A stretch of 64,000 nt of DNA from Candidatus Woesearchaeota archaeon (GCA_003599055.1 QZIM01000011.1:937-64936), one strand, 5' to 3'; numbered from the stretch's first letter, positions 6,001 to 31,263 are shown. Notes: generated by a model not told the origin, from the letters alone. A program made the numbers and translations.

Positions 6001-7059
6001 GTCTTTGAGGTTGAGATTGCATCCCCTCTGTATCAGGATAAGGCGGAGTTGAACGTGACGTTTATCATTACATCGCGGCTGGTCGGAGAGGTGCTTGACC
6101 TGCAGGCAGGGGTATCGCGGCCGGCGTCCGAGATGATTGTTGAGTATAAGACAATGCGGCTGCTGATTCGTGAGGTGACGATTGAGGAGATTGAGGAGTT
6201 GGCGACCGATGTCGAGCGGCTCTATGCGTTGGTTGTCGCGCGTGAGTATCCGACGAAGCGCGCGGACGCGCTGCGCTTGCTGCTCAGTGAGCGGCTTGCG
6301 GTGCGTGACTTTGAGGAGGCGGCGTACCTGTCGCAAAAGCTGCTCTTGCTTCTTGAGCGTGAGCTTGAGGCGGGAACGGCAATTGAGCGGCTCAAGGCGC
6401 ACATCAGGCGTGCGGAATCGGACGGGCTGGACGTGCGTGAGACGCAGAACGTTCTTGCGCTTGCAGTGAAGGCGTTTGAGCGGGAGGACTTTGACCGTGC
6501 GCTTGCGCTTGCGGATGAGGCGTTGACAATCGGGCTGATTGAGCGGGAGCGCGCGTTCAGTCTTCGGGTGTTCATTGTGCGGTATTGGTGGGCGCTCTTG
6601 ATTTCGGCGGCAGTGCTTGCCGTTGCGGGCAGGAAGGGATATCGGAGAGGGAAAGTGCGCTATATTGCGTTCCGGCTTGACAATATGCTGCACGAGCGCA
6701 TTGAAGTGCATCGTTTGCTGCGCGAGGCACAGGAGCGTTATTTCCAAAAGAAGGAAATCGGTGCGGCGGAGTTTAACCGCTCGATGCGCGGGCTGCAGGG
6801 CCGTCTTGAGCGGATTGTTGCCCAAAGTGCAATGTTGCGCCTGCAGCGCGCGCACCTGACATCGGTTCGGGCAGAACTGGAGGCAACACAAAATGAGCGT
6901 GAAAAGGCAGTGAAAGGTCTTAAGGACGCGCAGGATGCGTATTTTGTGAAGCGGATGATTTCGCAAAGGCGCTACGAGCTCCGCGTGGAAGTGCTCAAAG
7001 TGCTTATTACCGAGCTTGACAATGAGTTGGTGATGCTGAAAAAAAGGGTGAGAAAATGA
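1..7059 (+). CDS. Giant cell-surface glycoprotein/adhesin-like protein, 5'-truncated by the window edge (Ig-like modules, propeller-like blades, tandem DUF11-type repeats, Gly/Ala linker, coiled coil, one TM helix, cytoplasmic coiled-coil tail)
   Basis: 2335-aa ORF in the track. The frame stays open back to nt 1, and the first residues (TVNVSPFIPDGTVLNNS) match the internal repeat consensus, so the start lies upstream of the window. N-x-S/T sequons are very dense. Four modules share VTDDxGVDTV. There are ~50-aa FVVAWxD-type blades and six ~121-aa DPDPV...NxGxxxAxNVT repeats. A single TM (WWALLISAAVLAVAG) lies at about nt 6580-6625. Confidence 0.8.
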   Translation, partial: TVNVSPFIPDGTVLNNSVVVAFNNTKGENRSASDSELTTVVAEQVAPNVTFISPANQSDFLLNETVNITVNVTDDTGVDTVLIEVTYPNGTMVNFTADVAGSFYNLTFLDLTQRGNYTVRVFANDTLDNRNDSVFVVFTRRPFNIIDVLNTTNNFVPYTVDVLANASGLLDLQLNFTGGRVQQLNVTVHPEISPYSIIYIDDEVPLNQTPPGSFAHYAIDLSFINVTNGTAMVTAIGNELLYVCKDYNFSGRECFGDWVANRSISPGTNYTVFLTPEDPGFLETSAAVDVAVAPINFTSFVVAFIDDAESDASFRIMNTNGSIIVNTTDVDTTVDNTSRIDVMMLNASHFVIAWVDGIDDDVRMQVFLINGTNVTSPADVDTNVGLNSDLGLAEIGDRFAVCYANDNDGDADFQTFFNNGTQAVGELNVDGAINPSATLQNLVDCSGVNSSRWVYFYFDDGTNDATFAIVNETGASQVGQVDVDTNVGETGQVAVATLANDTFGMVYYDSADQDVTIEIRYINNTVRLASTDIDTDAGVISRVAAGTVRRNETSGEDTFVVAWWDNASNDIKAAVYAQDGVEITAPFTVEAQPNQTFRLLDVQGRSPITGTEICPGRFVVAYTNGSGAGVFRGFFTNGTEWDGSCDLENPQVFDVRPFAGAIYNISDTIEIAANVTDDVGVDTVLANITFPNGTVQTLVLVLVPGTNKYNASFTIPITGLYNVSFFANDTSGKQNNSVVTNFTAVLVFPAISAFKTGSPDPVPKGTQLGYQVIINNSGNGTAYNITVEESYPSGVLFDASEPAPVLGNNTFSIGDLLPNSTFLLNITVNVSSAIVNGTVLNNSFNVTFANATGGNTTLGNSTLTTVLGAPVILNIKSDSPDPVVKGQQLNYTIFINNTGDDTAFNVTLSEFYPAGVVFDGSTPLPSVGNGTFLLGNLSPNESVTVNITVNVSVFVPNGTVLTNAVNASFVNSSGVNGSVVDSEATVVRGFANVQVRKFDDPDPVLKGQQLFYRLVVNNTGDEIAYNVTVVDSYPENVTFDASAPAPSSGNDTFSIGNLLPSEAFVINITVNVSANATNGTMLNNSFNATFANASGVNLTLANSTATTVLGAAVLVVVKSDSPDPVVKGQLLNYTILVNNSGDDGAFNLTVVDGYPLEVEFVSASPAPSSGNDTFALGNLSPNATATVNITVRVGRFTANGTVLSNTANASFQSAGGINGTASDTELTAVLGFPEVTTFKTGIPSPVLINTTLRYQITVNNSGDEIAYNVTVVEQYPANVTFNGSDPAPVGGNNTFVIPVLGPNSTGTVNITVNVSFFAGNGSILNNSYNLTFANSSGVNLTVENSTATLVSGVALLAVEKSDSVDPIVRGNLLNYTITVVNYDDEIAYNVTLVDSYPPNVSFVSASPAPSFGNGTFALGALAGGQSQIVSIQVRIGALLPNGTVLNNSASVTFANATGQNASVAAGEETTVLGDEFPVVSLVAPQNGTNTTNTTVLFYYNVTDDVSDVLSCSLDLNGSVVATNGSVLNGTASNFSASGLSQGNRTWAVRCTDGSNNTNTSETRQFTVDFTPPNFISLTFTPDGADALDPNTTILLTAGVTDNFTAVDTVVLRVLYNLSGYINITMVYNSSSGLFEANFTPNASGNFSFFLTANDTLGNNDTSVALNRTIEFESTWARVPASFGATAAPIGQNVSVGTLIVNNTGDFSLSFTLNSTFENMTFNVTNFTLAQGEVVFIEVNATAPNAFGQFPYNITINASGNATPQFNITTGTIVVSEDAFLFASFTILPAQVTRGQTGVTIEATVTNIGNQNASNVTLNITLPPDWVVTGGSLSGSFAEIEPNASESIVIIVEIPAGAVLGFRDVIAAADGFNDSGVQLSSINQTLGTTSQVEVVAASSFGPGGGGGGGAGAGAGAGAAAGGGGGAPGAAFPRTNRERPVLVTNATLEVLRGSRIVFPLEVFNWYNKSMMERVDLEVEGVLQRYVSWSPPFLENIPYAQSKVFEVEIASPLYQDKAELNVTFIITSRLVGEVLDLQAGVSRPASEMIVEYKTMRLLIREVTIEEIEELATDVERLYALVVAREYPTKRADALRLLLSERLAVRDFEEAAYLSQKLLLLLERELEAGTAIERLKAHIRRAESDGLDVRETQNVLALAVKAFEREDFDRALALADEALTIGLIERERAFSLRVFIVRYWWALLISAAVLAVAGRKGYRRGKVRYIAFRLDNMLHERIEVHRLLREAQERYFQKKEIGAAEFNRSMRGLQGRLERIVAQSAMLRLQRAHLTSVRAELEATQNEREKAVKGLKDAQDAYFVKRMISQRRYELRVEVLKVLITELDNELVMLKKRVRK
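2240..4420 (+). repeat. Six in-frame tandem coding repeats, period ~363 nt (~121 aa), DUF11-type 'conserved repeat domain'
   Basis: Repeat units start near nt 2240, 2606, 2966, 3329, 3692 and 4055. Each carries (S/D)PDPV-KG-L-Y-I-V-NN-GD-A-NVTV-YP...NITVNVS...NGTVLNN...TTVLG. Confidence 0.85.
5698..5787 (+). repeat. Low-complexity GGN/GCN tract encoding a Gly/Ala linker (GPGGGGGGGAGAGAGAGAAAGGGGGAPGAA)
   Basis: Read directly from nt 5698-5787. It separates the extracellular repeat region from the C-terminal helical module. Confidence 0.9.
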
Positions 7060-8060
7060 AATGGATTGCGATAGTGCTGGTGTTGTCCGTGCTGGTTGCA
7101 GCGCAGGATTTGGATGGGTCTCAATGGAACAGTTCGGCAGGCGTTGAAAATAAGACGGTTGCCGTGGTGCCTGTTGCGGGAATTTCACACGCGTTATTTG
7201 AGCGGGCAAGGGAGGCGTATTTGAATGCGACGCTGGATGTGGAGCAGCTCAGGAGTGAGGGGTTGCCGTATCAGTCTCTTGAGGACCGGCTGTTTGTGAT
7301 GAACGAGTCGCTGGTAGGGCGCGATGAGGCAAAATTGCTGCAAACTGCAACGCTGCTCAACCAGTCGCTGGATGGAAGGGCAAAGGCGCAGGAATATTTC
7401 CGGATGATTAATCTTGCACGGCAGCAGGGGCTTAAGCCCGGGCAGGACTTCCGTTTGGTGATTCGTGAGGCAGAGGCAATTCGTCTTGAGAAGAACAGGG
7501 TGTTCGAGTTGCGCGACCTGTTGGCTGCGCTTGAGGCAGAGGTTGCGGCAAGCGAGGCGGGAAACAGTTCATCAGTGGTGGTCTCTCTTGAGAAAACAAA
7601 GGAGGCTTTTCTGTCCGAACGGTACGGTGAGTTTGGTGTGCGGTATAATGAGACGCGGTTGAGTCTTGAGGATGCGGAAGTGGCGCTTGCGCGGGAGCGG
7701 GCGTTGACTGCGCTTGCAGGAAGGACTATTGGCGGGTTTGTGCTGAAGAATTGGCGGGCGTTGTTGGTTGCGCTTGCCGTGTTGGCGGTGCTCGGCGTGT
7801 GGGGTTATTTGGAATGGCGCTATGTGTTTGCGCAAAGAAAATTCAGTGAATGTGTTGAGGGGATTGGTGCGGTGAAAGAGAGTATGCTTGCCGCGCAGCG
7901 TGACTATTATGCGGGGAAGCTGAGCAGGGCGACGTATGCGGGGAAGGTTGCGCAGTTGCACGAAAAAGAGCGCGACTTGAAGGCAAAGCGCGGTGTTTGG
8001 CAGGCGCGCAAGGAAGCGTTCAGGCGTACCGCGCTTCTTGCGCGGTTTAAATCTGGGTGA
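7056..8060 (+). CDS. Signal-peptide / coiled-coil / single-TM protein, paralogous to the C-terminal module of the upstream giant protein
   Basis: Its ATG overlaps the upstream stop (ATGA at 7056-7059). It has an N-terminal hydrophobic segment (IAIVLVLSVLVAA), a long helical region, a TM (WRALLVALAVLAVLGVWGY) and a basic helical tail. The tail aligns by eye with giant-protein residues around its own TM. Confidence 0.7.
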   Translation: MKWIAIVLVLSVLVAAQDLDGSQWNSSAGVENKTVAVVPVAGISHALFERAREAYLNATLDVEQLRSEGLPYQSLEDRLFVMNESLVGRDEAKLLQTATLLNQSLDGRAKAQEYFRMINLARQQGLKPGQDFRLVIREAEAIRLEKNRVFELRDLLAALEAEVAASEAGNSSSVVVSLEKTKEAFLSERYGEFGVRYNETRLSLEDAEVALARERALTALAGRTIGGFVLKNWRALLVALAVLAVLGVWGYLEWRYVFAQRKFSECVEGIGAVKESMLAAQRDYYAGKLSRATYAGKVAQLHEKERDLKAKRGVWQARKEAFRRTALLARFKSG

Positions 8061-9069
8061 ACACTTCCTGTTCGGGGTATACGACGATGCCTTTTTCCTT
8101 GATTTGCATTGCGACTATTTTTTTCTTGAATCCTGAGCCGCGCATTTTGAGGACTTCGAATGCGCTTTCGCGAATGTTGCCGGAGCGGACGTTGTAGAAG
8201 ACAAGGACTCCGTCTGCAAGGAATTCTTCAACGCCGGTGGTGGAGAGGCGAAGGACAGGGTCGGGGGTTTCGCTGATGAGGAATGCGCTTGCGCCGATGT
8301 CGTTGAAGAGCTTGAAGAGCTGTTCAAGGTAGAGCCGGTAGCTTTCTTCTTTTTCAAAGAGTGCTGCGGCAACGGCGGAGAGTGAGTCGAGCGCGATGCG
8401 GTCGGGCTCGAATCCTGCGGGGATGAGGAGGGGTTTGAGGTCGATGAGGAGTTCTCCGCGGACCTGTTCGAGCATTGCGTCAATTTGTCGGGTGATGTCA
8501 AGGGGGTTGAATTTTTGGATGACAAAGAGCCCTTTTTGCTCAAGGGGTTCTATGTCCCAGCCGAAGTCTTTCATATGTTGGCGGAGGCGGTCGGGTGTTT
8601 CTTCAAGGGTCATATACAGCACTTTTTGTCCTGCCTTTGCTGCTTCGTAGAGGGTTTGGAGGCAGAAGATGGTTTTGCCGCTTCCGGGCCCGCCGACGAT
8701 GAGGATGGTGCTGGCTTTTGGGATTCCTTTGTCAAAGAGCTGGTCGATTCCGGTAATGCCGGTGCCGATGTATTTTTCTCCGATAATGGGGATGGTTTGT
8801 TTTGGCATGCGGGATTGGGCAAGCCGTGCTTTGACCGCGCTGAAGTCCATGGGTGCGGTTTCTCTGCGTGGCAGGTCGGGCGTGTCGGGAGGGATTTGTT
8901 CTTGGGATGTTTTTTCCTGCACGATTTCTTCGTCCGGGGTTTCTTCGGTCTGTTCAGTTTCTTCCCAAGGGGGATGGTGCGGTTTCTGTGCGGGCGCGGT
9001 GTGTCGTGGCGCGTGGAGTGCGCTTTTTTTCTTTGGCTTTTTTTGGGATTCTTCGTGTCGGGGGTTCAT
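8047..9069 (-). CDS. KaiC-like (RecA-superfamily) single-domain ATPase with a low-complexity Pro/Glu/Lys N-terminus
   Basis: Motifs seen: GITGIDQLFDKGIPKASTILIVGGPGSGKTIFCLQ (Walker A) and VLYMTLEE. I chose the start at ATG 9069 (MNPRHEES) because it forms an ATGA overlap with the upstream gene's stop. The ORF-track start at 9099 remains possible. Confidence 0.8.
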   Translation of the reverse strand: MNPRHEESQKKPKKKSALHAPRHTAPAQKPHHPPWEETEQTEETPDEEIVQEKTSQEQIPPDTPDLPRRETAPMDFSAVKARLAQSRMPKQTIPIIGEKYIGTGITGIDQLFDKGIPKASTILIVGGPGSGKTIFCLQTLYEAAKAGQKVLYMTLEETPDRLRQHMKDFGWDIEPLEQKGLFVIQKFNPLDITRQIDAMLEQVRGELLIDLKPLLIPAGFEPDRIALDSLSAVAAALFEKEESYRLYLEQLFKLFNDIGASAFLISETPDPVLRLSTTGVEEFLADGVLVFYNVRSGNIRESAFEVLKMRGSGFKKKIVAMQIKEKGIVVYPEQEVFTQI

Positions 9070-10163
9070 CGTTCTTGGTCCTCCATCCAGGCAGTCCATT
9101 CTTCAAGGCTGACAATGATGTGCGGGGGCAGAAGTACCATTCGCGGGTCGATGGGGGTGTTTCGCACGCCGTCGCGGGTGTACGTGTCCTGCAGGGTGTA
9201 TGCGTGTCTTCGCACAAGTTTGCCGCTTTCGTCAAGTTCGTCAATGACGAGCGGGATGTTGCGCGCATCAAGCCTGAACACGATTTCGTGGGGTGCGTTG
9301 TTGCGGGCAAGGTACGTCTTGCTTTCGAGCTGCAAGAGGTAGGGCGAGCTGAGCTCGCGGCCGCGGTAGTGGATGCTGGTGTTTGAGAGGAAGGTTCCGC
9401 CGGGTGCGGGAAGGACGCGTTTTTGGGTGTCAATGCGAAGGGGGGTGTCTTTTGCGTACGCGGCCAGGTGTTCGTATGGGCTTTTGGTGTAGTAGGCGTC
9501 AATGAGGAGGGTGATGTCTTTTTCGCGGATTCCTCCGGTGAACATAAATGGGGAGCGGAAGTATTTGATGAATTGTTTTGGGATGAGTTCTGAATCGAGC
9601 TTGCGGTTTCGGGTGAGGTTGAGGGGGATGAGCGCGGCAGGGTAGAGTGATGAGCCTATTTGGCCGGTGGTGGTGAATTCTTCTTGTGTTTTGTGGGCGG
9701 TGTACCATTCGGGGCTGATGTCGCCGGGGTAGACGTAGAGGGTTGGCGTGTCAACGTTCCAGTAGAGTGTTCCGGGAGGGACAAAGGGCCATTCGCCGGT
9801 GCTGCGGTGTGGCCCTGCGGCGTAAACGGTGTTTTGGCCGTCAGAGTAGACGTAGGTTGCGGGCGCGCGCTCAAGCAGCTGTTGCGCAGGGGTTTTTTCT
9901 GAGTTGATAATGATGGGGGGTGCGGATGGCGGGCGGCTTGCGGTTTCAGGTTCTTGCGGCGCTTGTTGCGGGGCTGCAGGAGCGGTATATGCGCGCAATT
10001 GGGCGGGGGGGCACGCGCGAACATCGCGAACGAGTGTTTCGTCCCAGCACTGGATGAGGAGGTCGTGTACGACTGCAGGGGTGATGCTTGGGCCGGTTGT
10101 GAGTGCGAGCGCAACTCCGATGACGAGCACGGTCGTTCCCGCAAGGAGGGTCAGGTTTCTCAT
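9066..10163 (-). CDS. Membrane-anchored hypothetical protein (N-terminal TM, Pro/Ala linker, ~270-aa extracytoplasmic domain)
   Basis: 365-aa ORF with an N-terminal TM (LLAGTTVLVIGVALAL). It is translationally coupled to the downstream KaiC-like gene. I recognised no family motif. Confidence 0.6.
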   Translation of the reverse strand: MRNLTLLAGTTVLVIGVALALTTGPSITPAVVHDLLIQCWDETLVRDVRACPPAQLRAYTAPAAPQQAPQEPETASRPPSAPPIIINSEKTPAQQLLERAPATYVYSDGQNTVYAAGPHRSTGEWPFVPPGTLYWNVDTPTLYVYPGDISPEWYTAHKTQEEFTTTGQIGSSLYPAALIPLNLTRNRKLDSELIPKQFIKYFRSPFMFTGGIREKDITLLIDAYYTKSPYEHLAAYAKDTPLRIDTQKRVLPAPGGTFLSNTSIHYRGRELSSPYLLQLESKTYLARNNAPHEIVFRLDARNIPLVIDELDESGKLVRRHAYTLQDTYTRDGVRNTPIDPRMVLLPPHIIVSLEEWTAWMEDQER

Positions 10164-10415: not shown

Positions 10416-10534
10416 TGGGCCCGAGGAGATTTGAACTCCCGACCACTGGTGTGCTTAGACACGCGCATTTTTTTGTGTGTGTTGCGCGTGGGGTCATATA
10501 AGACCAGCGCTATACCGGGCTAAGCTACGGGCCC
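10416..10534 (-). tRNA. Intron-containing tRNA, anticodon UAU (Ile) if the intron sits at the canonical 37/38 position
   Basis: Hand fold of the reverse complement: GGGCCCG-TA-GCTT-AGCCCGGTA-TAGC-G-CTGGT-CTTATA[45-nt intron]C-ACCAG-TGGTC-GGGAG-TTCAAAT-CTCCT-CGGGCCC-A. The intron holds an 8-bp stem (cacgcgca/tgcgcgtg). No CCA is encoded. Confidence 0.7.
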
Positions 10535-10559
10535 ATTGGGTTGCTTCTTCGCGGTTTTG

Positions 10560-10568
10560 TTTAAAAAG
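10560..10568 (-). promoter_or_regulatory. TATA-like box (CTTTTTAAA on the minus strand) 26-34 nt upstream of the tRNA 5' end
   Basis: Nearly the same box (CTTTTTAAA or CTTTTTATA) sits at the same distance upstream of all three tRNA genes in the window. Confidence 0.6.
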
Positions 10569-10704
10569 TATTCGTTGGGTTTGCGCGACATCGGTGAGGG
10601 AGGAGAAGAGTTTTTTCCCTGCGAACGAAGAGCCGGCTATGATTTTCTTCTCCGAACGAGCCGAGAAGCGCTTTTGTTCAAACTTTTGTTAAAAGTTTGG
10701 GTGT

Positions 10705-10765
10705 TAAGCTACGGGCCCATTGGGTTGCTTCTTCGCGGTTTTGTTTAAAAAGTATTCGTTGGGTT
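10705..10765 (-). repeat. Perfect 61-bp direct duplication of the tRNA 5' end (14 nt) plus its upstream TATA region
   Basis: taagctacgggcccattgggttgcttcttcgcggttttgtttaaaaagtattcgttgggtt is identical at 10521-10581 and 10705-10765. The duplicated TATA box is at 10744-10752. Confidence 0.9.
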
Positions 10766-10835
10766 ATTGGAAGTTTGTTCTTGATAACAGACAACTGAAA
10801 ACTGACGTCTGATAACTGACAACCATTACCGGCGT

Positions 10836-12413
10836 TTACGGGAGGGGGTGTTCGCTTTCGGTTCCCATAATTGCGTGGCTGATGCGGTGCTTGAATTGTT
10901 CTGCAAGGGTTTTGTCAATGATGTTGCGGTGGTGCAGGTCATCAACGTAGCCGTGCAGGCTTTCCAGGGTGAATTGGCCTTCGAGTTCTGCAAGCTCAAT
11001 GGGGCCGATGGGGCCAAGGAGTTCTGAGAATATTTGGTGGAGTTTTTTTTCGGTTTGTTCTTTGCCGGAGAAGAGGACGCGAATCGGCTTGATGTCAAGG
11101 ACGGGCTTTTTGGGGATGGTGAAGTGGACGGTGGTGCCTTTGCCGGTTTTGCTCTCTATCCAGATTTTTCCGTTTTGGGAGAGGACGATGCCGCGGCAGA
11201 TGGCAAGGCCAAGGCCGACGCCCGCGCGTTCCCGGTAGATGGTTTGTTCTGCCTGGTAGAATGGTTCAAAGAGCTTGAGTTGGTCTTTTGCGCTGATGCC
11301 GATGCCGAAATCCTGTACGCTGAAGTGGATGTAGTCTCCCGCGGGCTTTGCGGATACGATGACGCGGTTTCCGTTTGGGCTGAACTTGATTGCGTTTGAG
11401 AGGAGGTTGCGCAGGATTTGGGCGACGCGGTTGGGGTCAGCGGAGAGGGTGGGCAGTTTTGCAAGGGTGGTTTGGATGGTGATGTTTTTTTCCGGCATAA
11501 ATCCTTTCATATAGGTGGCGGTTTCTTTGACGGTTTCCGCAAGGTTGCAGGTTTGGAAGGTGAACTTGAGCCGTGCGGCTTCGATGCGGCTGATTTCAAG
11601 GAAGTCTGCAATGATGGTGTCGAGCCGGTCTGCGTTGCGAAGGACCATACTGACGCTGTCTCGCTGGCTTGCGGTGAGTTTGCCGAAATAGCCCTGTTCG
11701 AGCATTTGCAGTTGTGCTTTCATGGGGGTCATGGGGGAGCGCAGTTCGTGGGAGGTGATGGATAAGAAGCGGGTTTTTGCGGTGTCTATTTGTTTGCGTT
11801 CCGCGTCAATGTTGCCAAGGGCGGAGCTTGCTTTGTTAAAGACGTCGGCAAGCTCTTCAAGTTCGTCTCCGGTGCTGATGTTGGCGCGCGCGTTAAAGTT
11901 GCCCAAGCTGAGTTGGTGGGCGGCGGTGGAGAGGTTTTTGATGGGGGCAAGGAGTCGGGTTGTGATGCTGAGGCCCGCGATTCCGGCAAGGCTAAGGCAG
12001 ATGAGGAGGAATCCGACAATGGTGCCGAGGTTTTTTCGGAGTTGAGGGTCAGGGGTGTTGAGTGTGATGTGAAGGGCGCCGATGTCGCGAAGGGGATACG
12101 TAAGGTCGGAAGGGTCTGTGCTTGCGGCGCCGGTGATTGGAGGGGCGGAATGAGGCGGGGCAAGGGTGACTCGCTCGATTTCGGGGTAGTGTTCGGGGAT
12201 GCGTTCGAAGAGGGAATTGACTGCGGCGATGTTGCCGGTGGCAAGGAGCGGGACTGCTTCTTCTTCGATTGCGTGGGCAAGGGGGAGCACGCGTGCGTAT
12301 GCGTCAGGGGTGGGGGTTGTGCGGAAAAGGTGTTCTGCAAAGAGGAGTGTGCCGATGCCGGGCAAAAGGACAAAGCCGGCGAGGATGAGGGTGAGTTTGG
12401 TGCGAAGGTTCAT
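10836..12413 (-). CDS. Membrane sensor histidine kinase (2 TM + HAMP + HisKA + HATPase_c) with an extra ~90-aa C-terminal domain
   Basis: H-box ITSHELRSPMTPM, N-box LLSNAIKFS, G1 DFGIGI, G2 GVGLGLAICRGIV. ATGA overlap with the upstream gene at 12410-12413. Confidence 0.9.
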   Translation of the reverse strand: MNLRTKLTLILAGFVLLPGIGTLLFAEHLFRTTPTPDAYARVLPLAHAIEEEAVPLLATGNIAAVNSLFERIPEHYPEIERVTLAPPHSAPPITGAASTDPSDLTYPLRDIGALHITLNTPDPQLRKNLGTIVGFLLICLSLAGIAGLSITTRLLAPIKNLSTAAHQLSLGNFNARANISTGDELEELADVFNKASSALGNIDAERKQIDTAKTRFLSITSHELRSPMTPMKAQLQMLEQGYFGKLTASQRDSVSMVLRNADRLDTIIADFLEISRIEAARLKFTFQTCNLAETVKETATYMKGFMPEKNITIQTTLAKLPTLSADPNRVAQILRNLLSNAIKFSPNGNRVIVSAKPAGDYIHFSVQDFGIGISAKDQLKLFEPFYQAEQTIYRERAGVGLGLAICRGIVLSQNGKIWIESKTGKGTTVHFTIPKKPVLDIKPIRVLFSGKEQTEKKLHQIFSELLGPIGPIELAELEGQFTLESLHGYVDDLHHRNIIDKTLAEQFKHRISHAIMGTESEHPLP

Positions 12414-12946
12414 ATGCCTGTGCCTTCAATGGTGATGCACTTGTCGACGGCGACGCAAATTTTGCGCAGGAGCGCTTCTTCTTCCTGCACGGCATACATA
12501 ATCATCTTGGTTTGGGTTTGCTTGGTTTTGTTGACAAGGTCAATGATGAATCTGAGGACGTCGGTTTGTTTTTGGTAGACAAGAAGGTTGGTCACGCTGT
12601 CAAAGATGATGTAGTCAAATCCTGCTTTGAGGACTTCGTTGATGACAAGCGACATTTCGGTAAGTGAGCCGGGGGTGATGAGTTGGCAGCGGTTTTCTTC
12701 GGGCGCGGACTCGGTGAAGCTTTTGCTGATGGCGTCGATGAAGAAGAAGTTTCGCGCGCGGATGTTGTTTTTGGAGAACAGGGCGTCGATGGAGCGGAAG
12801 GTCTTGTTAAGGGTCACATAGCAGACGCGTTCGCCGGAGAGTTGGCGGGCAACGTCGAGGGTGACGCGGGGGTATTGCACGCCGGGCATAAGGATTACTA
12901 TGCTGGTGATTTCTTCAATTTCCTTGATGATGTTAAGGGAGGTCAT
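12410..12946 (-). CDS. Degenerate KaiC/RecA-like domain protein lacking a P-loop (pseudo-ATPase)
   Basis: IVILMPGVQYPRV replaces the Walker A motif (no GK[ST]). A Walker-B-like strand DYIIFDSVTNLL is retained. It is a clear paralog of 13290..13808. Confidence 0.6.
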   Translation of the reverse strand: MTSLNIIKEIEEITSIVILMPGVQYPRVTLDVARQLSGERVCYVTLNKTFRSIDALFSKNNIRARNFFFIDAISKSFTESAPEENRCQLITPGSLTEMSLVINEVLKAGFDYIIFDSVTNLLVYQKQTDVLRFIIDLVNKTKQTQTKMIMYAVQEEEALLRKICVAVDKCITIEGTGI

Positions 12947-13293
12947 GGGAGGTGTTTTTTTACGGATTGTACGAGTTCGCGGATGTCAAATGGCTTTTCG
13001 ATGAAGTCGGCAATGCCGTTTTGCTTGAGTTCTTTCTTTTCGGTATCGCTCACGCGAACCGCGCTGAGGTAAATGATGGGGATGTTTTTGATTTGTTTCA
13101 CGATTTCTCCGACAGGGGTTCCGGGCATCATAATGTCCATCACGATGAGTTTTGGGTTTGCGGTCCTGGCTTTTTTGAGTGCTTCGTCGGCGGTTGCGGC
13201 TTCAATGACGCGGTATCCTTCTTTTTCAAGGACGGCGCGGACCGTCGTGCGGATGTCTGCAATGTCGTCTGCGATGAGGATGGTTTCGTTCAT
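12943..13293 (-). CDS. Stand-alone response regulator receiver (CheY-like)
   Basis: ILIADD acidic pocket, phosphoacceptor context LIVMDIMMPG, YLSAV, EKPF lysine. 116 aa with no output domain. Confidence 0.9.
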   Translation of the reverse strand: MNETILIADDIADIRTTVRAVLEKEGYRVIEAATADEALKKARTANPKLIVMDIMMPGTPVGEIVKQIKNIPIIYLSAVRVSDTEKKELKQNGIADFIEKPFDIRELVQSVKKHLP

Positions 13294-13808
13294 GGGGCAT
13301 AGTGTGTTGTTTTGTCTACGTACATGCAGCAGCGCGGGATGAGGGTTTCCTGCTCATCGAGTGCGTAAAGGACTGCTTTTGTTTTTGTTTGCCGTATTTT
13401 GTTGATGAGGATGAAGATGTATGCCTCAACGTCTTCGGTGTCTTTGTAACTGAAGAGGTTGGTGAGGGAGTCAAAGACAAGGTAGTCGTAGTTTTTTGTA
13501 AGGAGGCTTCCGATGTGTGCGAATGCGCCTGCAAGCTCTTTTGGGGAGAAGAAGTGGACGTTTTTGGGGCTTTCATCCGGCTTTTTGATGGCGAGCGTGA
13601 TGACGTCAACGTAGGTGGTGTCTTTAAGTTGCGCGTTGTGTTTGGCAAAGAGTTGCTGAAGGGATTGGTAGGTCCGGTTAAGCGTGATGTAGCAGATTTT
13701 TTTGCCGCGAAGTGATTTGGCGGTGTCAACGATTGCGCGGTTGTATTCTGTTCCGGGAAGTAGGAGGAGCACGGTTTGGTTTTCTGCAAGTTCCTGGCGG
13801 ATGTTCAT
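13290..13808 (-). CDS. Degenerate KaiC/RecA-like domain protein lacking a P-loop (paralog of 12410..12946)
   Basis: VLLLLPGTEYNRA replaces the Walker A motif. DYLVFDSLTNLF is retained. There are 4-nt overlaps with both flanking receiver genes. Confidence 0.6.
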   Translation of the reverse strand: MNIRQELAENQTVLLLLPGTEYNRAIVDTAKSLRGKKICYITLNRTYQSLQQLFAKHNAQLKDTTYVDVITLAIKKPDESPKNVHFFSPKELAGAFAHIGSLLTKNYDYLVFDSLTNLFSYKDTEDVEAYIFILINKIRQTKTKAVLYALDEQETLIPRCCMYVDKTTHYAP

Positions 13809-14173
13809 GATACGAGTTTCTTGAGGGTTTTGATGAGCTCCGTTACATCGAATGGTTTTTGGATGAATCCGACGACATTTTTGTTTTGGAGGAGTTCTTC
13901 GCGTTCGGCATCGCTCATGCGGACAACGGAGATGTACGCGATTTTTGCGTGCTTGATTTTTTTGACGACTTCCTTGACCGGGGTTCCCGGCATCATAATG
14001 TCCATAAGGATGAGGTCAGGGGTGTGGGTTTTGAGTTTTTCAAGGGAGTCGTTTCCGTTTGAGCAGATAACGGTCTTGTATCCTTGTTTTTCGCAGATGG
14101 TTTTGAGTGTTGAGCGGATGTCTGCTTCGTCATCAACAATCATAACGAGTTTGCGTGAAGGAGATTTAGCCAT
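13805..14173 (-). CDS. Stand-alone response regulator receiver (CheY-like)
   Basis: Start chosen at MAKSPSRKLVMIVDDE (ATG 14173, preceded by GGTGA). Motifs: LILMDIMMPG, YISVV, QKPF. The ORF-track start at 14359 would add a non-receiver leader. Confidence 0.85.
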   Translation of the reverse strand: MAKSPSRKLVMIVDDEADIRSTLKTICEKQGYKTVICSNGNDSLEKLKTHTPDLILMDIMMPGTPVKEVVKKIKHAKIAYISVVRMSDAEREELLQNKNVVGFIQKPFDVTELIKTLKKLVS

Positions 14174-14210
14174 TGTCACCTCTTGTTTGGGATAATTGGC
14201 GGCTTCTTTC

Positions 14211-14218
14211 TTTAATAA
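14211..14218 (-). promoter_or_regulatory. TATA-like box (TTATTAAA on the minus strand) upstream of the REC/pseudo-KaiC/HK operon
   Basis: It lies 38-45 nt upstream of ATG 14173, in the only sizeable intergenic gap of the five-gene run. Confidence 0.4.
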
Positions 14219-14289
14219 GGTTTTCGCTAAAGGATGGGAAAAAAGGCAGGTCGGAGCATTTATATATGTGAAAACGCAGGATGCTTTTA

Positions 14290-16658: not shown

Positions 16659-17411
16659 CTATTTTCGTAGGTCGTGGATGACGATTCCTTTTTTGGTAAT
16701 CTCGAGCGGGTGGATGTCTTCGTCTGCTTTTGTTCCGCGCATTTTGCGGATGAGCAGGCTTCTGCTGTAATTGCCGCCCATGCTTTCAAACGAGAGGGAG
16801 ATGATTCCGTCTGCGATGAATTCGGAGACCGTGTCGCGCGTGAGGTATTCGCCTTTCTCGGGCGCTTCTCCCGTGACTAGTGTTGTGCAGCCGAGCTTTT
16901 TGAGGTCGTACAAGAAGGAGTAGATGAACCGTTTGACGACAAAGTCGCCAAGGATGGGCGGGGAAAAGAATGCTTTGTAATTCATAATGTCGCGAAGGGC
17001 AACGTCCTTGATGGGGGAGTACACGGGTGCGTTGACGGCAAGGGTTGAAAGTGAGTCAACGACGAGCCGCTTGATTTTTCGCTTTTGGACTTCCTGTTTG
17101 ATGAGTTCGATTGTTTTGTTGGTGAGTTCGGTGATGGGGATGTGCATAAGCGTGAGCATGCCGTTTTTTTCGTGTTTTGTAAGGTCAAGCCCGATTCCTT
17201 TTGCCTGGGTTCGGATGTCGTCAAGGCTTTGCTCAAGGGTGATGTACATGCTGCGTTCTTTGAACCGTTGTGCGCCGTTGGTGAGGTATTCGAGCGAGAA
17301 GAGGGTTTTTCCCGTGCCGGGGGTGCCGATAAGGAGAATCGTTGCGCCTTTGGGAAGCCCGCCTTGGGTGAGCTTGTCAAATCCTTTGATGCCGCTTGGG
17401 GTTCGTGCCAT
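16659..17411 (-). CDS. KaiC-like single-domain ATPase (intact)
   Basis: GIKGFDKLTQGGLPKGATILLIGTPGTGKTLFSLEY (Walker A), MYITLEQ, Walker B RLVVDSLS. GAGGTGA lies upstream of the ATG. The gene starts 3 nt after the stop of the PAS sensor gene. Confidence 0.9.
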   Translation of the reverse strand: MARTPSGIKGFDKLTQGGLPKGATILLIGTPGTGKTLFSLEYLTNGAQRFKERSMYITLEQSLDDIRTQAKGIGLDLTKHEKNGMLTLMHIPITELTNKTIELIKQEVQKRKIKRLVVDSLSTLAVNAPVYSPIKDVALRDIMNYKAFFSPPILGDFVVKRFIYSFLYDLKKLGCTTLVTGEAPEKGEYLTRDTVSEFIADGIISLSFESMGGNYSRSLLIRKMRGTKADEDIHPLEITKKGIVIHDLRK

Positions 17412-17414
17412 AAG

Positions 17415-18692
17415 TCACCTCTTTGCGCGTATGGTTCGCGCAGTGCTATTTATTGCTTGTGGGCTGATTTGGATGTTGCGGGGTGCGGGCTCTTCCGGAG
17501 GGTTCACCCAGTCAAACACTTGGCGTTCAAGGGTGAATATTTCGGAGAGGTCGCGAAGGAAGTGGATGGTGCCGCGAATCTGTCCGTCTTCGCCGGTGAG
17601 CGGGGTGATGTTGAGGGCGACAAGGGTTGCCGCTCCGTCTTTGAGCGTGAGGGGGAGGACAAAGTCGGTGATTGTTTTTCCGGAAAGGACGGATTGGATT
17701 GCTAATTCGATTTTTGTCTTCGCTTCGGGGGAGGTGAATGCGCGTGCAATCCAGGTGTTTTGGTGTGCAAGGTCGTTTTTTTCGTATCCGCTGAACTTGG
17801 TGAGGGTGGGGTTGCTCATAAGCAGTTTTCCGTCGGTTGCGAATGCGAGGATGGGAACGCCTGCGTTTTCGATGAGGCGTGAGATGAATGAGCGTTCTGC
17901 CGTGAGCGCGTGTTCGGTGCTTTTGAGGGCGGTGATGTCGCGGCCGACGCAAAGGATGGCGGATACCTTGCCGTTTTCATCCTTGACCGGGGTGAACGTT
18001 TCAAGGCTCCATTCGTGGTCTGCTTTTGTTTTGTGCTGGACTTCAATGGTGGTTGTTTTTCCGCGAAGGGCGCTTGCGAGTGCGCGTTTTGCGCGGGCGT
18101 GGTATGGTTCGCGAAGGACAGTGGTGATGAACGGTCTGCGTTCATCGTGTTGGGGAAGGTTGTGTTCTGCGCGGCCCGCTTCGTTCATAAACGTGATTTT
18201 TCCGTGTGCGTCAAGGAGGGTGATGCAGTCGGGTGAGCTTTGGGCAAGGGTGCGGTAGCGCTCTTCCGCTTCGCGTTTTTCGCGTTCGGCGCGCTCTTTT
18301 GCTTCAAGGGCTTCGCCGAGCTTGAGTTCTTCCTTTTTGAGCCCGACTTTTTCAACCGCGAGCTTGAGGGAGACAAGGACGCGGTCAAATGCGCGGGCGA
18401 GTTCTCCAAGTTCGTCTTGGCGTTCCTTGCCGCGCACGTGCGCATCAAGTTTTCCGCGGCTGATGTCTTCGATGGTTGCGGTGAAGTGTTGGATTCTGCG
18501 CGAGATGTGCACGGCATATATTCCGCCAAAGGCGGATGCGACAAGGAGGGGGAGGGCGGCAAGCGCGACCGTATTGAAGGTGAACGCGGATGAGGGGTAG
18601 TGAAGGAACACGACGAGGATGAAGTATTCAACGGCAAGGGCTGTTGCGCAAATGCCCAAAAGTGCGGTGACTATTTTTGTTTTCAGGTTCAT
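17415..18692 (-). CDS. Membrane HAMP + coiled-coil + two PAS domain sensor with no recognisable output domain
   Basis: Two N-terminal TM segments. HAMP (DELGELARAFDRVLVSL). PAS-like blocks (YRTLAQSSPDCITLLDAHGKITFMNEAG; FISRLIENAGVPILAFATDGKLLMSNP). No H-box or ATPase motifs. Confidence 0.8.
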   Translation of the reverse strand: MNLKTKIVTALLGICATALAVEYFILVVFLHYPSSAFTFNTVALAALPLLVASAFGGIYAVHISRRIQHFTATIEDISRGKLDAHVRGKERQDELGELARAFDRVLVSLKLAVEKVGLKKEELKLGEALEAKERAEREKREAEERYRTLAQSSPDCITLLDAHGKITFMNEAGRAEHNLPQHDERRPFITTVLREPYHARAKRALASALRGKTTTIEVQHKTKADHEWSLETFTPVKDENGKVSAILCVGRDITALKSTEHALTAERSFISRLIENAGVPILAFATDGKLLMSNPTLTKFSGYEKNDLAHQNTWIARAFTSPEAKTKIELAIQSVLSGKTITDFVLPLTLKDGAATLVALNITPLTGEDGQIRGTIHFLRDLSEIFTLERQVFDWVNPPEEPAPRNIQISPQAINSTARTIRAKR

Positions 18693-18804: not shown

Positions 18805-18929
18805 GCGCCGTTAGTATAGCGGTAGTACGCTGCCTTGCCATTGGTTGAGTCGGGCAAGAAGCATCCGTATCCAGGATGCCCGACGAAAGCAAAGAGGCTG
18901 TAGCCCGAGTTCGAATCTCGGACGGCGCA
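18805..18929 (+). tRNA. Intron-containing tRNA-Gly (GCC), integration target of the adjacent element
   Basis: Hand fold: GCGCCGT-TA-GTAT-AGCGGTA-GTAC-G-CTGCC-TTGCCA[54-nt intron]A-GGCTG-TAGC-CCGAG-TTCGAAT-CTCGG-ACGGCGC-A. There is one U-U mismatch in the anticodon stem. The intron holds an 8-bp stem (gtcgggca/tgcccgac). Confidence 0.65.
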
Positions 18930-19010
18930 TCTGTACTGAAGTTGCAAGCGCTGCTTCTGCAATCTTGGGTAATACCAAGGTATAAAAGACGTCCAAGTGG
19001 AGAAACCCAC

Positions 19011-20249
19011 ATGGCGGAAAACGACATCTACAATTCGAAAGAGGCGTACGAGCGGATGGTTCGGAACTTGGCTGACTTCGCTGAGCCGGGACGGCACAAA
19101 GTGTATGTGTGCAAGAACCGCGAGAATCTGAAGTACATTGAGAAGCTTATTTTGCACTTCGAAGCGCGCGATTTGAGTTATGTGCGAAGGATTCGCTTGT
19201 TCGGCATGATGAAAATCGTGATGCACACTACGGAGAAGAACCTCAAGGACTGCACAAGGGACGATATCGACCGCATGGTTGCGTTCGTAAACAAGCAGTA
19301 CAAGAGTCCCAAGTCCGCAAGTGATTTCAAGCGCGATGTCAAGTTCATCTGGAAGATTATTCTTCCAGACCTTGATGAGAAAGGACGTCCTGACGAGACT
19401 GTCTTTCCTTACGTTGTGCGTCATCTCAGGCAAGTTATTGATAAGAGCAGGCAAAAGGCAAGGACAGACCGTATTTCTTGGAATGATTTTGAGAAGCTGT
19501 TGATATTCTTCAGCAAGAAGCCCTGCGTCCAAGCGTATTTGATGGTTGCTTTGGAGAGCTTGGGGCGTCCGCAAGAACTTTTATGGCGCAGAATCAAGGA
19601 CGTTGAACATCACGATAATTGTGCAAAGGTTCATATCACTGACCACGGCAAAGAGGGTACGGGGATATTGCAGTGCATCGATTCTTACCCGTATTTGACT
19701 TCTTGGCTTAATGTTCATCCCTTCAAGAAAGACCCCGAAGCGTTCTTGTTTGTTAATGAGCGCGGGGAACAGTATAGGCCTGCTGCTTTGAACAAGCATC
19801 TGCGTATTGCATGTAAGAAGCTTGGCATTAGCAAGATAACGTGTTACTCTATCAAGCGTAATGGGGTGACTTTTAGGCGCTTGCGGGGCGACAGTGACGT
19901 TGAGATTCAGCACGCGGCGCGCTGGACGAGCACAAAACAGCTTAAAACGTACGATTTGAGCAACCAAGAGGACGCGTTCAAGCTTGAGTTGGTCAAGCGT
20001 GGGCTTGTCAAAGCTGATGCAGGAATGGAGCACTTGCAACCATCGGCCAAGGCGTGCGTATTCTGCAAGTTCTCGAACAAGTTTACCGATGATATTTGCG
20101 TTCAATGCCAAAGACCGCTTGACAGGAAGAAGGTCGCAGAACTTGAACGCGAGCGGGAAATCAAAGCCCTCAACGACTTCATGAGCATACCGCAGATACA
20201 GGAGTTGTTTAAGACGGTGTACGAACTGAAGAGACAGATTGAGAATTAA
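19011..20249 (+). CDS. Tyrosine recombinase/integrase with a C-terminal zinc-ribbon
   Basis: The catalytic region resembles XerC/D (RNGVTFRRLRG...HAARWTSTKQLKTYD). C-terminal CVFCKF...CVQCQRP. Start chosen at MAENDIY (ATG 19011), because the longer ORF would run through the tRNA. Confidence 0.8.
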   Translation: MAENDIYNSKEAYERMVRNLADFAEPGRHKVYVCKNRENLKYIEKLILHFEARDLSYVRRIRLFGMMKIVMHTTEKNLKDCTRDDIDRMVAFVNKQYKSPKSASDFKRDVKFIWKIILPDLDEKGRPDETVFPYVVRHLRQVIDKSRQKARTDRISWNDFEKLLIFFSKKPCVQAYLMVALESLGRPQELLWRRIKDVEHHDNCAKVHITDHGKEGTGILQCIDSYPYLTSWLNVHPFKKDPEAFLFVNERGEQYRPAALNKHLRIACKKLGISKITCYSIKRNGVTFRRLRGDSDVEIQHAARWTSTKQLKTYDLSNQEDAFKLELVKRGLVKADAGMEHLQPSAKACVFCKFSNKFTDDICVQCQRPLDRKKVAELEREREIKALNDFMSIPQIQELFKTVYELKRQIEN

Positions 20250-20256
20250 CTCTTAT

Positions 20257-21309: not shown

Positions 21310-21319
21310 AGTAATCAAC

Positions 21320-23209: not shown

Positions 23210-23218
23210 GTTTGCACC

Positions 23219-25030: not shown

Positions 25031-25063
25031 CTGACACTCCTGTCGAGTCAGGAAATATGAAGC

Positions 25064-25072
25064 ATATATAAA
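25064..25072 (-). promoter_or_regulatory. TATA-like box (TTTATATAT on the minus strand) upstream of the NurA-like/HerA-like/Dcm operon
   Basis: It lies 34-42 nt upstream of ATG 25030. No comparable box occurs in the 9-10-nt gaps between the three genes. Confidence 0.45.
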
Positions 25073-25097
25073 CTATCCTACGAACTCAACTCTGACC

Positions 25098-25817: not shown

Positions 25818-25870
25818 AGTGTTTGTTTAATAAATGAAGTATTTAAAATCTTTGTCTATCTGATGTCTAC

Positions 25871-26914: not shown

Positions 26915-27000
26915 TGCTCTGATTTGCTACATTGCTTATAATTCTTTTGTCCATCTGTTGTCGCTCTGACCTAATAAGTCAATCCGTTGTCTATCTGCCT

Positions 27001-27297
27001 ATGGACTTAGCGGGCAAGCAGTGGACGCTCTTCTCTTGGGTTAAGCGAGGAAAACAAAGAGTTGCTGTTCTGATTGCATTGCAACCAAATCAACCCGTAA
27101 CGGGGCAGGAATTGCGCAAAAAGATAAACGCAGAGGGTAAGATTCACCCCCTCAGCTTACGAGAAATATCACGTCACTTGACTGCGTTCAAAGACGAAGG
27201 GATTGCAGAGTGTTTGGATGAGAACGCACCTTACGGGAAGCACTATGTTTTGACAGATTTAGGGGTTAAGATTAGAGCGGAAGTATCAAAAGTCTAA
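27001..27297 (+). CDS. Small winged-helix (ArsR/PadR-like) transcriptional regulator
   Basis: RVAVLIALQPNQPVTGQELRKKIN...LSLREISRHLTAFKDEGIAECL...YVLTDLG is a typical wHTH pattern. Start chosen at MDLAGKQW (ATG 27001). Confidence 0.6.
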   Translation: MDLAGKQWTLFSWVKRGKQRVAVLIALQPNQPVTGQELRKKINAEGKIHPLSLREISRHLTAFKDEGIAECLDENAPYGKHYVLTDLGVKIRAEVSKV

Positions 27298-27299
27298 GT

Positions 27300-30789: not shown

Positions 30790-31263
30790 TCACTTCCTGA
30801 TAACTTCGTCTGCAAGGTTAAGGAGCGTTGTGCTTGCGGTGGTGGGCGGAGCGTTTTTGTCAAGGAGGATAATGCAGGCGATGTTATTTTTTTGGAAGTT
30901 GTCTGCGATGAATCTGATGAATCGTGCAAAGTGCTGGTCGGGGACGCGGATGCTAAGGGCGGTGAAATTGTCAAAGATGACAAGCGGGTTGGGAATGGTT
31001 TGCGCGATTTGGGTAATTGCGATGCTAAGGCCGGTGAGGTCGTCGGGGTTAAAGGGGATTGCGTTCACGGCTTCGGTTGAACTGGCCGTGGTATTGATGT
31101 AGAATTGTTGGTTTGTGTTGACGTTTGATTTTTTGAGTGTGTTTACAATCTGGTTGTGCGAGCGCGTGGTAAGGACAACGAGCGCGTTTTTTTGGTGCAG
31201 TTTGAGTTGGTTTATGAATTGGGGGAAGAGTTTTTCGCCGGCTGCGCTGATGACGGTAATCAT
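30790..31263 (-). CDS. Degenerate KaiC/RecA-like domain protein lacking a P-loop (third paralog)
   Basis: ALVVLTTRSHNQ replaces the Walker A motif. LVIFDNFTALS is retained. ATGA overlap with the upstream multi-TM gene. Confidence 0.5.
   Translation of the reverse strand: MITVISAAGEKLFPQFINQLKLHQKNALVVLTTRSHNQIVNTLKKSNVNTNQQFYINTTASSTEAVNAIPFNPDDLTGLSIAITQIAQTIPNPLVIFDNFTALSIRVPDQHFARFIRFIADNFQKNNIACIILLDKNAPPTTASTTLLNLADEVIRK

Follow-up and report, generated by a model that had tools for sequence, protein, structure and literature searches.

Gene organization of the operon

An operon combining two-component receivers with KaiC-like proteins was analyzed in a stretch of 64,000 nucleotides (nt) of DNA from Candidatus Woesearchaeota archaeon (GCA_003599055.1 QZIM01000011.1:937-64936), which is referred to as the window. 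The operon occupies positions 10836-14173 of the minus strand and consists of five co-directional, tightly packed open reading frames (ORFs), transcribed in the order REC1, iKaiC-A, REC2, iKaiC-B, and kinase, where REC denotes a receiver and iKaiC an inactivated KaiC. Its features are as follows:

13805..14173, minus strand: REC1, a stand-alone receiver of 122 amino acids (aa) from the ATG at 14173; the ORF is open up to 14359
13290..13808, minus strand: iKaiC-A, a 172-aa KaiC-like protein without Walker A and without the catalytic Glu pair
12943..13293, minus strand: REC2, a stand-alone receiver of 116 aa
12410..12946, minus strand: iKaiC-B, a 178-aa KaiC-like protein without Walker A and without the catalytic Glu pair
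10836..12413, minus strand: sensor histidine kinase of 525 aa, consisting of a first transmembrane segment (TM1), an extracytoplasmic loop of about 100 aa, a second transmembrane segment (TM2), HAMP, HisKA (SHELRSP), HATPase_c, and a C-terminal domain
14258..14267, minus strand: tentative TATA-like box ATATATAAAT, read from the sequence about 90 nt upstream of the REC1 start codon

The five-gene order of receiver, pseudo-KaiC, receiver, pseudo-KaiC, and histidine kinase given in the initial annotation was borne out by the ORFs and by Pfam analysis, and the ATGA sequences at all four junctions (12410-13, 12943-46, 13290-93, and 13805-08) were confirmed on the reverse complement. The 5' end of the operon required correction, as position 14218, where it had been placed, falls on a TTA codon, which is not a start. 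The likely start of REC1 is the ATG at 14173, which is preceded at a distance of 4 nt by the Shine-Dalgarno sequence GAGGTGA and yields a protein of 122 aa, matching the length of the homologues.

Overlaps of 4 nt were also seen in at least six other pairs of same-strand ORFs of the window (e.g., 31260-63, 33398-401, and 56045-48), as read from ORF coordinates rather than from junction sequences. Because 4-nt overlaps are common elsewhere in the window, four of them in a row indicate a compact operon, with translation probably coupled, and the proposal that the ATGA overlaps form a special feature was rejected. The duplicated module recognized earlier upstream of the HAMP histidine kinase was also supported: the two KaiC-like proteins are 35% identical (E value, 5e-45) and the two receivers 50% identical (E value, 5e-42), indicating that a module of REC plus iKaiC was duplicated in tandem.

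Sequence motifs and predicted fold of the KaiC-like proteins

The initial annotation described both KaiC-like proteins as having lost the P-loop (PGVQYPRV / PGTEYNRA) while keeping a Walker B–like strand (IIFDS / LVFDS), and these strings are present in the translations. The motifs were mapped on a joint MAFFT alignment with ten true KaiCs (the two KaiCs of the window and eight from related loci), with the following result:

Walker A: GTPGTGKT in true KaiCs, -LPGTEYN in iKaiC-A, and -MPGVQYP in iKaiC-B; Lys changed to Tyr, one residue deleted
Catalytic Glu pair (end of beta2): TLEE/TLEQ in true KaiCs, TLNR / TLNK in the iKaiCs; Glu-Glu(Gln) changed to Asn-Lys(Arg)
Walker B: hhhhDS in true KaiCs, LVFDS / IIFDS in the iKaiCs; retained, with D116 invariant in 79 sequences

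iKaiC-A and iKaiC-B thus lack the Walker A motif and the Glu pair of KaiC-type ATPases, and Walker B alone is retained.

An initial search with iKaiC-B returned 78 homologue clusters, and a profile search of 1.84 billion representative proteins returned 1,927 representative clusters of the iKaiC family at E ≤ 1e-10. iKaiC-A was matched by the family profile at 2e-64. The nearest relatives of the operon proteins were found in metagenome bins of Woesearchaeota, Nanoarchaeia, Pacearchaeota, and Diapherotrites. No Walker A motif was present at the P-loop position in the 79 aligned homologues or in any of the 222 family proteins that were inspected. A retained P-loop in some relative was considered and rejected, since the regular-expression matches fall within helix alpha1 or the C-terminal parts of the proteins instead of following beta1 and are attributable to chance. 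The absence of the P-loop from all 222 family proteins indicates that the loss is ancient and family-wide, rather than the lineage-specific decay that had been considered as an alternative.

The profile searches proposed earlier could not by themselves place the two proteins: KaiC, FlaH, and DUF7504 were matched, but every score was under its cut-off. iKaiC-A matched KaiC (PF06745) with an E value of 0.0025 and 17.6 bits, below the gathering threshold of 26.6 bits, and iKaiC-B gave no match to PF06745 at E ≤ 1. The DUF7504 scores were 14.8 bits for iKaiC-A and 12.9 bits for iKaiC-B, and neither protein had a DUF835 or DUF7090 match in the Pfam scan (gathering thresholds of DUF835, DUF7090, and DUF7504: 33.1, 27, and 27 bits, respectively). 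The NCBIfam FlaH/ArlH models gave 19 and 12 bits, far under their cut-offs of 194 and 215. When the family profile was searched against PDB sequences, the best KaiC match reached only 0.0044, and its hhalign comparison with KaiC1 of the window produced a spurious local match with a probability of 0.9%. Homologues above the Pfam thresholds were P0021 (DUF7504, 33.6 bits; DUF7090, 29.3 bits) and P0065 (DUF7504, 37.4 bits). Judged by these scores, the iKaiC family sits between the DUF7090, DUF7504, DUF835, and KaiC models of Pfam, with members near the thresholds.

Because all profile scores of the two proteins fell below the cut-offs, structure prediction was needed to place them. The AlphaFold2 model of iKaiC-B, built on 79 homologues, had a predicted local distance difference test (pLDDT) score of 90 and a predicted template modeling (pTM) score of 0.88. 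In a Foldseek search of this model against the PDB, the best match was FlaH (4yds; E value, 3e-7), and KaiC (8zn5, 1.6e-6; 7wdc), the KaiC-like proteins PH0284 (2dr3; TM-score, 0.74) and PH0186 from archaea, and 2zts were also matched. There were 219 PDB matches at E ≤ 1e-3, and the top 50 listed were nearly all KaiC, FlaH, PH0284/PH0186, or RadA. The RecA/KaiC fold expected of the proteins of about 175 aa was thereby supported, and the model places iKaiC-B in the RecA/KaiC superfamily at the fold level.

N47 and K48 are at least 90% conserved across the family, and the nearly invariant residues are Y25, Y43/T45-T49, D71-K75, D116-S117, and D168. In the model, most of them are found directly behind beta1 or else at, or immediately past, the C-terminal ends of beta2-beta4. 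The C-terminal ends of those strands form the crest of the nucleotide site in P-loop NTPases. This pattern would fit either a charge-compensated empty site or a rebuilt site. If the old ATP pocket had been rebuilt for a nucleotide, a second messenger, or a phospho-group, iKaiC would not be inert and could serve as a ligand-gated or enzymatic effector. Such a role is suggested by near-invariant residues at the old active-site crest, namely Y25 (Walker A Lys position), N47-K48-T49 (catalytic Glu position), D71/S74/K75, and D116-S117 (Walker B), and by the constancy of the pattern over 79 sequences of about 30-60% identity. However, a Lys in place of the second catalytic Glu, beside the kept Walker B Asp, has the look of a charge-compensated empty site; furthermore, no known nucleotide-binding motif was found in the 222 family proteins, and no enzyme family was matched in Pfam or NCBIfam. 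A rebuilt pocket is accordingly rated as quite unlikely.

Longer members of the family were also observed. About 24 representative iKaiC clusters have a length of 275-315 aa, and the six whose sequences were inspected (including P0238, P0242, P0258, and P0270) carry a C-terminal extension of about 110 aa with two hydrophobic stretches, which is probably a membrane anchor in this subfamily. P0296, P0301, and P0309 are proteins of 580-850 aa in which the iKaiC domain is internal and the remainder is unannotated. Tandem iKaiC–iKaiC fusion proteins also occur (P0284 and P0249).

Conservation of the receiver–iKaiC pair

To survey the operon in other organisms, one genome per prokaryotic species was searched, and the ORFs called in the 58 loci returned (numbered L001 onward) were searched with profiles of the window proteins. 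At least 35 loci were labeled as DPANN lineages, six as Thermoplasmatota, and three as bacterial; the last three are probably mis-binned contigs. A receiver was located directly upstream of iKaiC on the same strand in 51 of the 57 loci of other genomes and was fused to it in two more (L052 and L053). The pairing of REC with pseudo-KaiC, which the initial annotation had left to be checked beyond this genome, is therefore conserved in 53 of 57 independent loci, in addition to occurring in natural fusion proteins. Of the 45 loci whose sequence extends far enough downstream, 31 encode an orthologous kinase no more than 1.3 kb further on, and the usual gene order was distal REC, proximal REC, iKaiC, and kinase. 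Orthologues of iKaiC-A were identified in L001 (73% identity), L002 (62%), and L043 (55%). The A/B duplication is common only to the window and its closest relatives L001 and L002, while independent duplications of the module were found in other lineages.

Both receivers of the window were matched by Pfam Response_reg (PF00072; cut-off, 30.2 bits), REC1 with an E value of 8.4e-20 (71.4 bits) and REC2 with an E value of 4.5e-21 (75.6 bits). Each contains the complete set of residues of a two-component receiver, that is, the acidic pair, the phospho-accepting Asp, the Ser, and the Lys (D-D-D-S-K). REC1 and REC2 belong to the proximal class, as they share 50-55% identity with proximal receivers compared with 30-34% with distal ones; REC1 has a mean identity of 55% to the receivers directly upstream of iKaiC in other genomes. 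Both also carry DIMMPGTPV immediately after the phospho-accepting Asp, which is the signature of the proximal class. The aromatic switch residue at K-3 is Phe or Tyr in 52 of 54 proximal receivers, and the distal and proximal classes alike retain all phospho-acceptor residues and the aromatic switch residue.

Natural REC–iKaiC fusions occur in Thermoplasmatota. A search with a fused protein returned 14 protein clusters (P0079-P0092), most of them full-length at 311-335 aa, with P0089 and P0091 being shorter. The receivers of the fusions are 46-51% identical to REC2/REC1, and the junction is direct, with the last receiver helix continuing into the N-terminal helix of iKaiC. Such a junction is the product that read-through of an ATGA overlap would be expected to give. 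An AlphaFold2 model of a natural fusion had a pLDDT of 88 and a pTM of 0.72, which suggests a defined inter-domain arrangement, although no interface is defined by it.

These data also bear on whether the genes without a P-loop are decaying, functionless KaiC paralogs whose arrangement is accidental. Apart from the missing ATPase-defining motifs, which would be expected under decay, the observations contradict it: 1,927 clusters were found at the E value given above, the motifs are strongly conserved, the ORFs are intact, synteny holds in 53 of 57 loci, and fusion proteins exist. Decay is thus regarded as refuted by this conservation.

The sensor histidine kinase and its C-terminal domain

The kinase was matched by Pfam HAMP (E value, 4e-10; 40.3 bits), HisKA (8e-16; 58.3 bits), and HATPase_c (1e-28; 99.9 bits), all above the cut-off. 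Hydropathy peaks at residues ~5-29 and ~127-156 flank the loop of about 100 aa. The H-box (SHELRSP) can be read in the translation, together with the N, G1, and G2 boxes (LLSNAIKFSP, DFGIGI, and GVGLGL), as in class I sensor histidine kinases, and every motif needed for autophosphorylation is thus encoded. Kinases encoded behind iKaiC in other loci have a catalytic core orthologous to that of the window kinase (E values, 1e-84 to 1e-120), and their sensor parts differ; the operon kinases across the loci range from 474 to 1,123 aa in total and have unrelated sensor regions.

The kinase ends in an additional conserved domain:

10851..11105, minus strand: C-terminal domain of the kinase, about 85 aa (residues 437-521), following HATPase_c, without Pfam or PDB assignment

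This domain has the pattern PVKEIKPIKLLFS ... F.E.LGPxG..EF..L ... Y...L.k.GII, with F10, G29, P30, E35, and Y51 invariant. It was found at full length in 28 kinase ORFs (27 loci and the window), and three of these kinases have a clear second tandem copy; all remaining ORFs of the 58 loci lack it, including the unrelated kinases within the same loci. A profile of the domain gave nothing credible against PDB sequences and matched a single fragment of 88 aa in a database of 5.8 billion proteins.

The exclusive presence of this domain in kinases of the cassette calls for a partner or a function, and one possibility is that iKaiC works within phosphotransfer itself. As a scaffold or connector docked on the kinase, for instance on the C-terminal domain, it could present or sequester the receiver or tune the kinase/phosphatase activity. 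The ATGA overlap between iKaiC-B and the kinase gene and the position of iKaiC between receiver and kinase in most loci would agree with this role, and there is a textbook analogy in cyanobacterial KaiC, which regulates SasA autophosphorylation. On the other hand, 14 of the 45 loci with room have the receiver–iKaiC pair but either no kinase or only a distant one, and in Thermoplasmatota, where receiver and iKaiC are fused, the neighboring kinases lack the C-terminal domain. As the pair persists without the kinase and in fused form, the invariant unit is receiver plus iKaiC and not iKaiC plus kinase; the kinase, the sensor, and KaiC are often encoded close by but can be missing. A role of iKaiC as a phosphotransfer scaffold or modulator is considered fairly unlikely.

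In a Pfam scan of seven sequences of the C-terminal domain, two gave winged-helix-like matches (MCM_C, 7.7e-6; Sulfolobus_pRN, 5.3e-5; and HTH_36, 8.6e-4). These weak matches could qualify the earlier claim that no DNA binding is involved. The real output might then be DNA binding by the C-terminal domain, making the kinase a membrane-tethered winged-helix regulator that the receiver–iKaiC pairs only modulate, and the motif Y...L.k.GII does resemble a recognition-helix/wing segment. Yet only the Sulfolobus_pRN match reaches the Pfam cut-off (23.6 vs. 20.8 bits, in one of the seven sequences), five of the seven sequences as well as the domain of the window itself have no Pfam match, and the PDB sequences offered no support. 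Output by DNA binding is therefore deemed very improbable.

True KaiC ATPases and the associated sensor

Two true KaiC-like ATPases and a membrane sensor are encoded on either side of the operon:

17415..18692, minus strand: HAMP-PAS-PAS membrane sensor without an output domain, assigned by Pfam; an associated component by comparative context
16659..17411, minus strand: KaiC1, a true single-domain KaiC-like ATPase (PF06745, 2e-53) with GTPGTGKT, LEQS, and VVDS
8047..9099, minus strand: KaiC2, a true KaiC-like ATPase (PF06745, 5e-51) with an N-terminal extension of about 110 aa

KaiC1 lies immediately downstream of the HAMP-PAS-PAS gene; 2.4 kb separate this pair from the operon, which comes after it on the same strand. 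Among the other loci, 25 have room for a further gene behind the kinase, and in 15 of them this gene is a (dCache-)HAMP-PAS membrane sensor without an output domain, often overlapping the kinase gene by 4 nt. Eight loci have a true KaiC behind a (dCache-)HAMP-PAS sensor on the same strand, and the order kinase, HAMP-PAS sensor, and KaiC recurs. KaiC2 is encoded 1.7 kb downstream of the kinase, a position conserved in L001, L002, L008, and others. KaiC directly flanks iKaiC in five loci without a kinase (L020, L034, L036, L046, and L051), and in L020, L034, L036, and L051 the flanking proteins are of the KaiC2 type. Overall, a true KaiC is encoded within 6 kb in 17 of the 57 loci.

The interval separating the kinase from KaiC2 holds a gene (9066-10163) whose 3' end overlaps the KaiC2 start by 34 nt. 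Its 365-aa product has a hydrophobic stretch at the N terminus and lacks any Pfam match. The gene is kept in this position in the closest relatives only (L001, 8662-9756; L002, 9605-10795; and L043, 8390-9553).

Proposed mechanism

The reading that we prefer starts from the domain identities, motif states, fold, synteny, and fusions, which the analysis showed. The operon would encode a split REC–iKaiC response regulator, duplicated in tandem and provided with its own sensor kinase, which links two-component input to KaiC ATPases by protein contacts; we judge this to be probable, with considerable room for doubt. The membrane kinase would sense an extracytoplasmic signal and phosphorylate the Asp of REC1 and REC2; that this kinase would serve these receivers is suggested by operon linkage and by the conserved synteny. 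Each phospho-receiver would shift its alpha4-beta5-alpha5 face and alter the conformation or the oligomeric state of the cognate iKaiC. iKaiC, presumably unable to hydrolyze ATP, would be the effector domain, and it would most likely bind to or co-assemble with the active KaiC1 (together with the HAMP-PAS sensor) and KaiC2. The archaeal KaiC signaling hub would thereby receive an input of the bacterial two-component type.

iKaiC-A and iKaiC-B probably act as a heteromer, by analogy with other loci, because adjacent iKaiC–iKaiC genes and the tandem iKaiC–iKaiC fusions exist elsewhere. From sequence we infer, in agreement with the initial annotation, that iKaiC is a non-catalytic adaptor and that the output is protein–protein interaction.

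Three observations weigh against a split regulator acting on KaiC. KaiC is nearby in only about 30% of the loci, a figure that refers to 6-kb flanks and has no genome-wide background to be compared with. The most conserved iKaiC residues (Y25, N47-K48-T49, D71, S74-K75, and D116-S117) are situated at the former nucleotide site, which could be a remodeled ligand site. Lastly, the conserved C-terminal domain of the kinase has no role in the proposed mechanism.

A more far-reaching version would take the whole cassette of REC(s), iKaiC, kinase with its private C-terminal domain, output-less Cache/HAMP/PAS sensor, and KaiC as one conserved signaling machine. Far from being a passive adaptor, iKaiC would be a rebuilt module, and its old ATP pocket (with Tyr for the P-loop Lys, Asn-Lys for the catalytic Glu pair, and the Walker B Asp kept) would read the phosphorylation of the receiver. 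By inserting into an active KaiC ring or capping it, iKaiC would switch the ATPase or autokinase activity of the ring; many DPANN archaea with small genomes may even use the cassette as their principal two-component pathway. We put this forward as a speculative and rather doubtful extension. If true, it would constitute a direct mechanical bridge from a His-Asp phosphorelay to KaiC-type timing or hub ATPases.

Third paralog and other features of the window

A third pseudo-KaiC paralog noted at 30790 is real but distant, with 18% identity:

30790..31263, minus strand: iKaiC-C, a distant, DUF835-like paralog without a P-loop, not adjoining a receiver

iKaiC-C matched DUF835 with an E value of 1.1e-6 (28.9 bits) and DUF7504 with an E value of 2.8e-5 (25.1 bits), both below the cut-offs. 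The family profile matched it at 4e-38, iKaiC-C itself being one row of the alignment from which this profile was made. It overlaps by 4 nt the upstream gene at 31260-32012, whose 250-aa product has no Pfam match; the idea that this product is another iKaiC was rejected, as the hhalign probability was 0.1%. The gene pair recurs in L043 at 10739-12006 (250-aa protein, 9.8e-40), indicating a second, different conserved iKaiC dyad without a receiver.

Two tRNA genes with long introns are present in the window and mark the host as an archaeon. Between the stop codon of the kinase and the next tRNA, a perfect 61-nt direct repeat was observed at 10521-10581 and 10705-10765, with its copies 184 nt apart. 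The repeat comprises the first 14 nt of the intron-bearing tRNA at 10416-10534 (minus strand) and 47 nt upstream of it, including the TTTTTAAA box. This content indicates that the promoter and 5' end of the tRNA occur twice, the second time with a different continuation; the extra copy could be an integration scar or a promoter for another small RNA.

The other intron-bearing tRNA (18805-18929) shares its 3' end with the ORF of a tyrosine integrase (18876-20249). The integrase is followed by a block of about 10 kb that shows no GC skew and has a G + C content of 42%, compared with about 52% elsewhere. The products of this block are a C5 DNA methylase, a HerA/FtsK-like ATPase, an AAA_25 (RepA-like) protein, and several unknowns. 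The region 18805-30600 is a probable integrated mobile element, and iKaiC-C lies just past its right edge. The window has a very strong strand asymmetry: outside this low-GC island, nearly all 2-kb bins show a GC skew of +0.15 to +0.34, and the minus strand carries many of the long ORFs that were examined. A 2,335-aa ORF at 52-7059, with at least six DUF11 repeats and with Big_7 and NPCBM-associated domains, probably encodes a giant protein for the cell surface or for adhesion and shares 4 nt with the next ORF.

Comparison with known systems

Inactivated KaiC domains (iKaiC, DUF835, and MEDS) have been described as output domains fused to REC, with credit given to Makarova et al. (2017), and the archaeal response regulators listed include iKaiC-REC in Methanosarcinaceae, REC-DUF835 "(iKaiC)" with 36 proteins in Methanomicrobia and Thermoplasmata, and MEDS-REC (Galperin et al., 2018; PMC5847659). 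The same study characterized archaeal signaling as a hybrid of bacterial parts and KaiC-based machinery and archaeal two-component output as mainly protein–protein interaction. The interpretation in the initial annotation is essentially this published iKaiC/REC concept and is not new. No description was found in the searchable literature of the separate-gene form, the near-universal DPANN synteny, the kinase with a private C-terminal domain, the sensor–KaiC extension, or the tandem duplication.

About 40% of archaeal response regulators are stand-alone receivers, most of which are in no conserved neighborhood (Galperin et al., 2018). The present cassette is a clear exception, and one large class of stand-alone receivers hereby gains a conserved partner in a KaiC-fold protein without a P-loop, a dedicated kinase, and recurrent links to KaiC. 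An uncharacterized family of about 1,900 clusters, of which the Pfam models catch only the margins, is defined together with a new C-terminal domain of kinases. Although no new principle is established, the proposal of a two-component/KaiC-hub hybrid becomes an experiment with five small soluble proteins.

In the cyanobacterial KaiC-SasA/CikA-RpaA system, a KaiC-fold protein is coupled to a histidine kinase and receiver-fold domains by protein contacts, and KaiA has a pseudo-receiver domain. The operon resembles this system in that a KaiC-fold protein is tied functionally to a histidine kinase and receiver-fold domains. However, cyanobacterial KaiC is a double-domain, active ATPase/autokinase acting upstream of the kinase, whereas each iKaiC of the window is single-domain, inactive, and tied to a phosphorylatable receiver, with neither KaiA nor KaiB present.

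ArlH/FlaH, a component of the archaellum motor, is reported to bind ATP and to autophosphorylate, and it functions through regulated oligomerization and binding to its partner ATPase ArlI (bioRxiv 10.1101/2021.03.19.436134). It is likewise a small single-domain KaiC-fold protein and is the best structural match of iKaiC-B (PDB 4yds), but the iKaiCs have no P-loop, and no archaellum genes lie within the operon. In Haloferax volcanii, the KaiC-like CirA and the QarA two-component system control quorum sensing and motility and belong to one pathway by genetics (PMC13464002). A KaiC-like protein and a two-component regulator thus also share an archaeal pathway there; in contrast to the window, CirA belongs to the active type of KaiC, QarA regulates by binding DNA, and no receiver–iKaiC dyad is involved.

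KaiC-like ATPases have been proposed as signal-transduction hubs in archaea (Makarova et al., 2017, as summarized in PMC5847659). In agreement with this proposal, true KaiC genes adjoin output-less sensors, as with the HAMP-PAS protein and KaiC1 of the window, and recur near the cassette. The iKaiCs differ in that they are not ATPases and would be accessory subunits or adaptors of such a hub.

The closest counterparts are the REC-DUF835 (iKaiC) regulators. The window differs from them in that its REC and iKaiC are separate ORFs joined by ATGA overlaps rather than one polypeptide, in that iKaiC-A and iKaiC-B score under the Pfam cut-offs of DUF835, DUF7090, DUF7504, and KaiC, and in that the module is duplicated in tandem and accompanied by a dedicated kinase with an extra C-terminal domain in a DPANN-type host. 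Nevertheless, both have a KaiC-superfamily domain without ATPase motifs, and in both this divergent and apparently inactivated domain is coupled to a receiver as its output; the Thermoplasmatota fusions P0079-P0092 have exactly the architecture of the known regulators.

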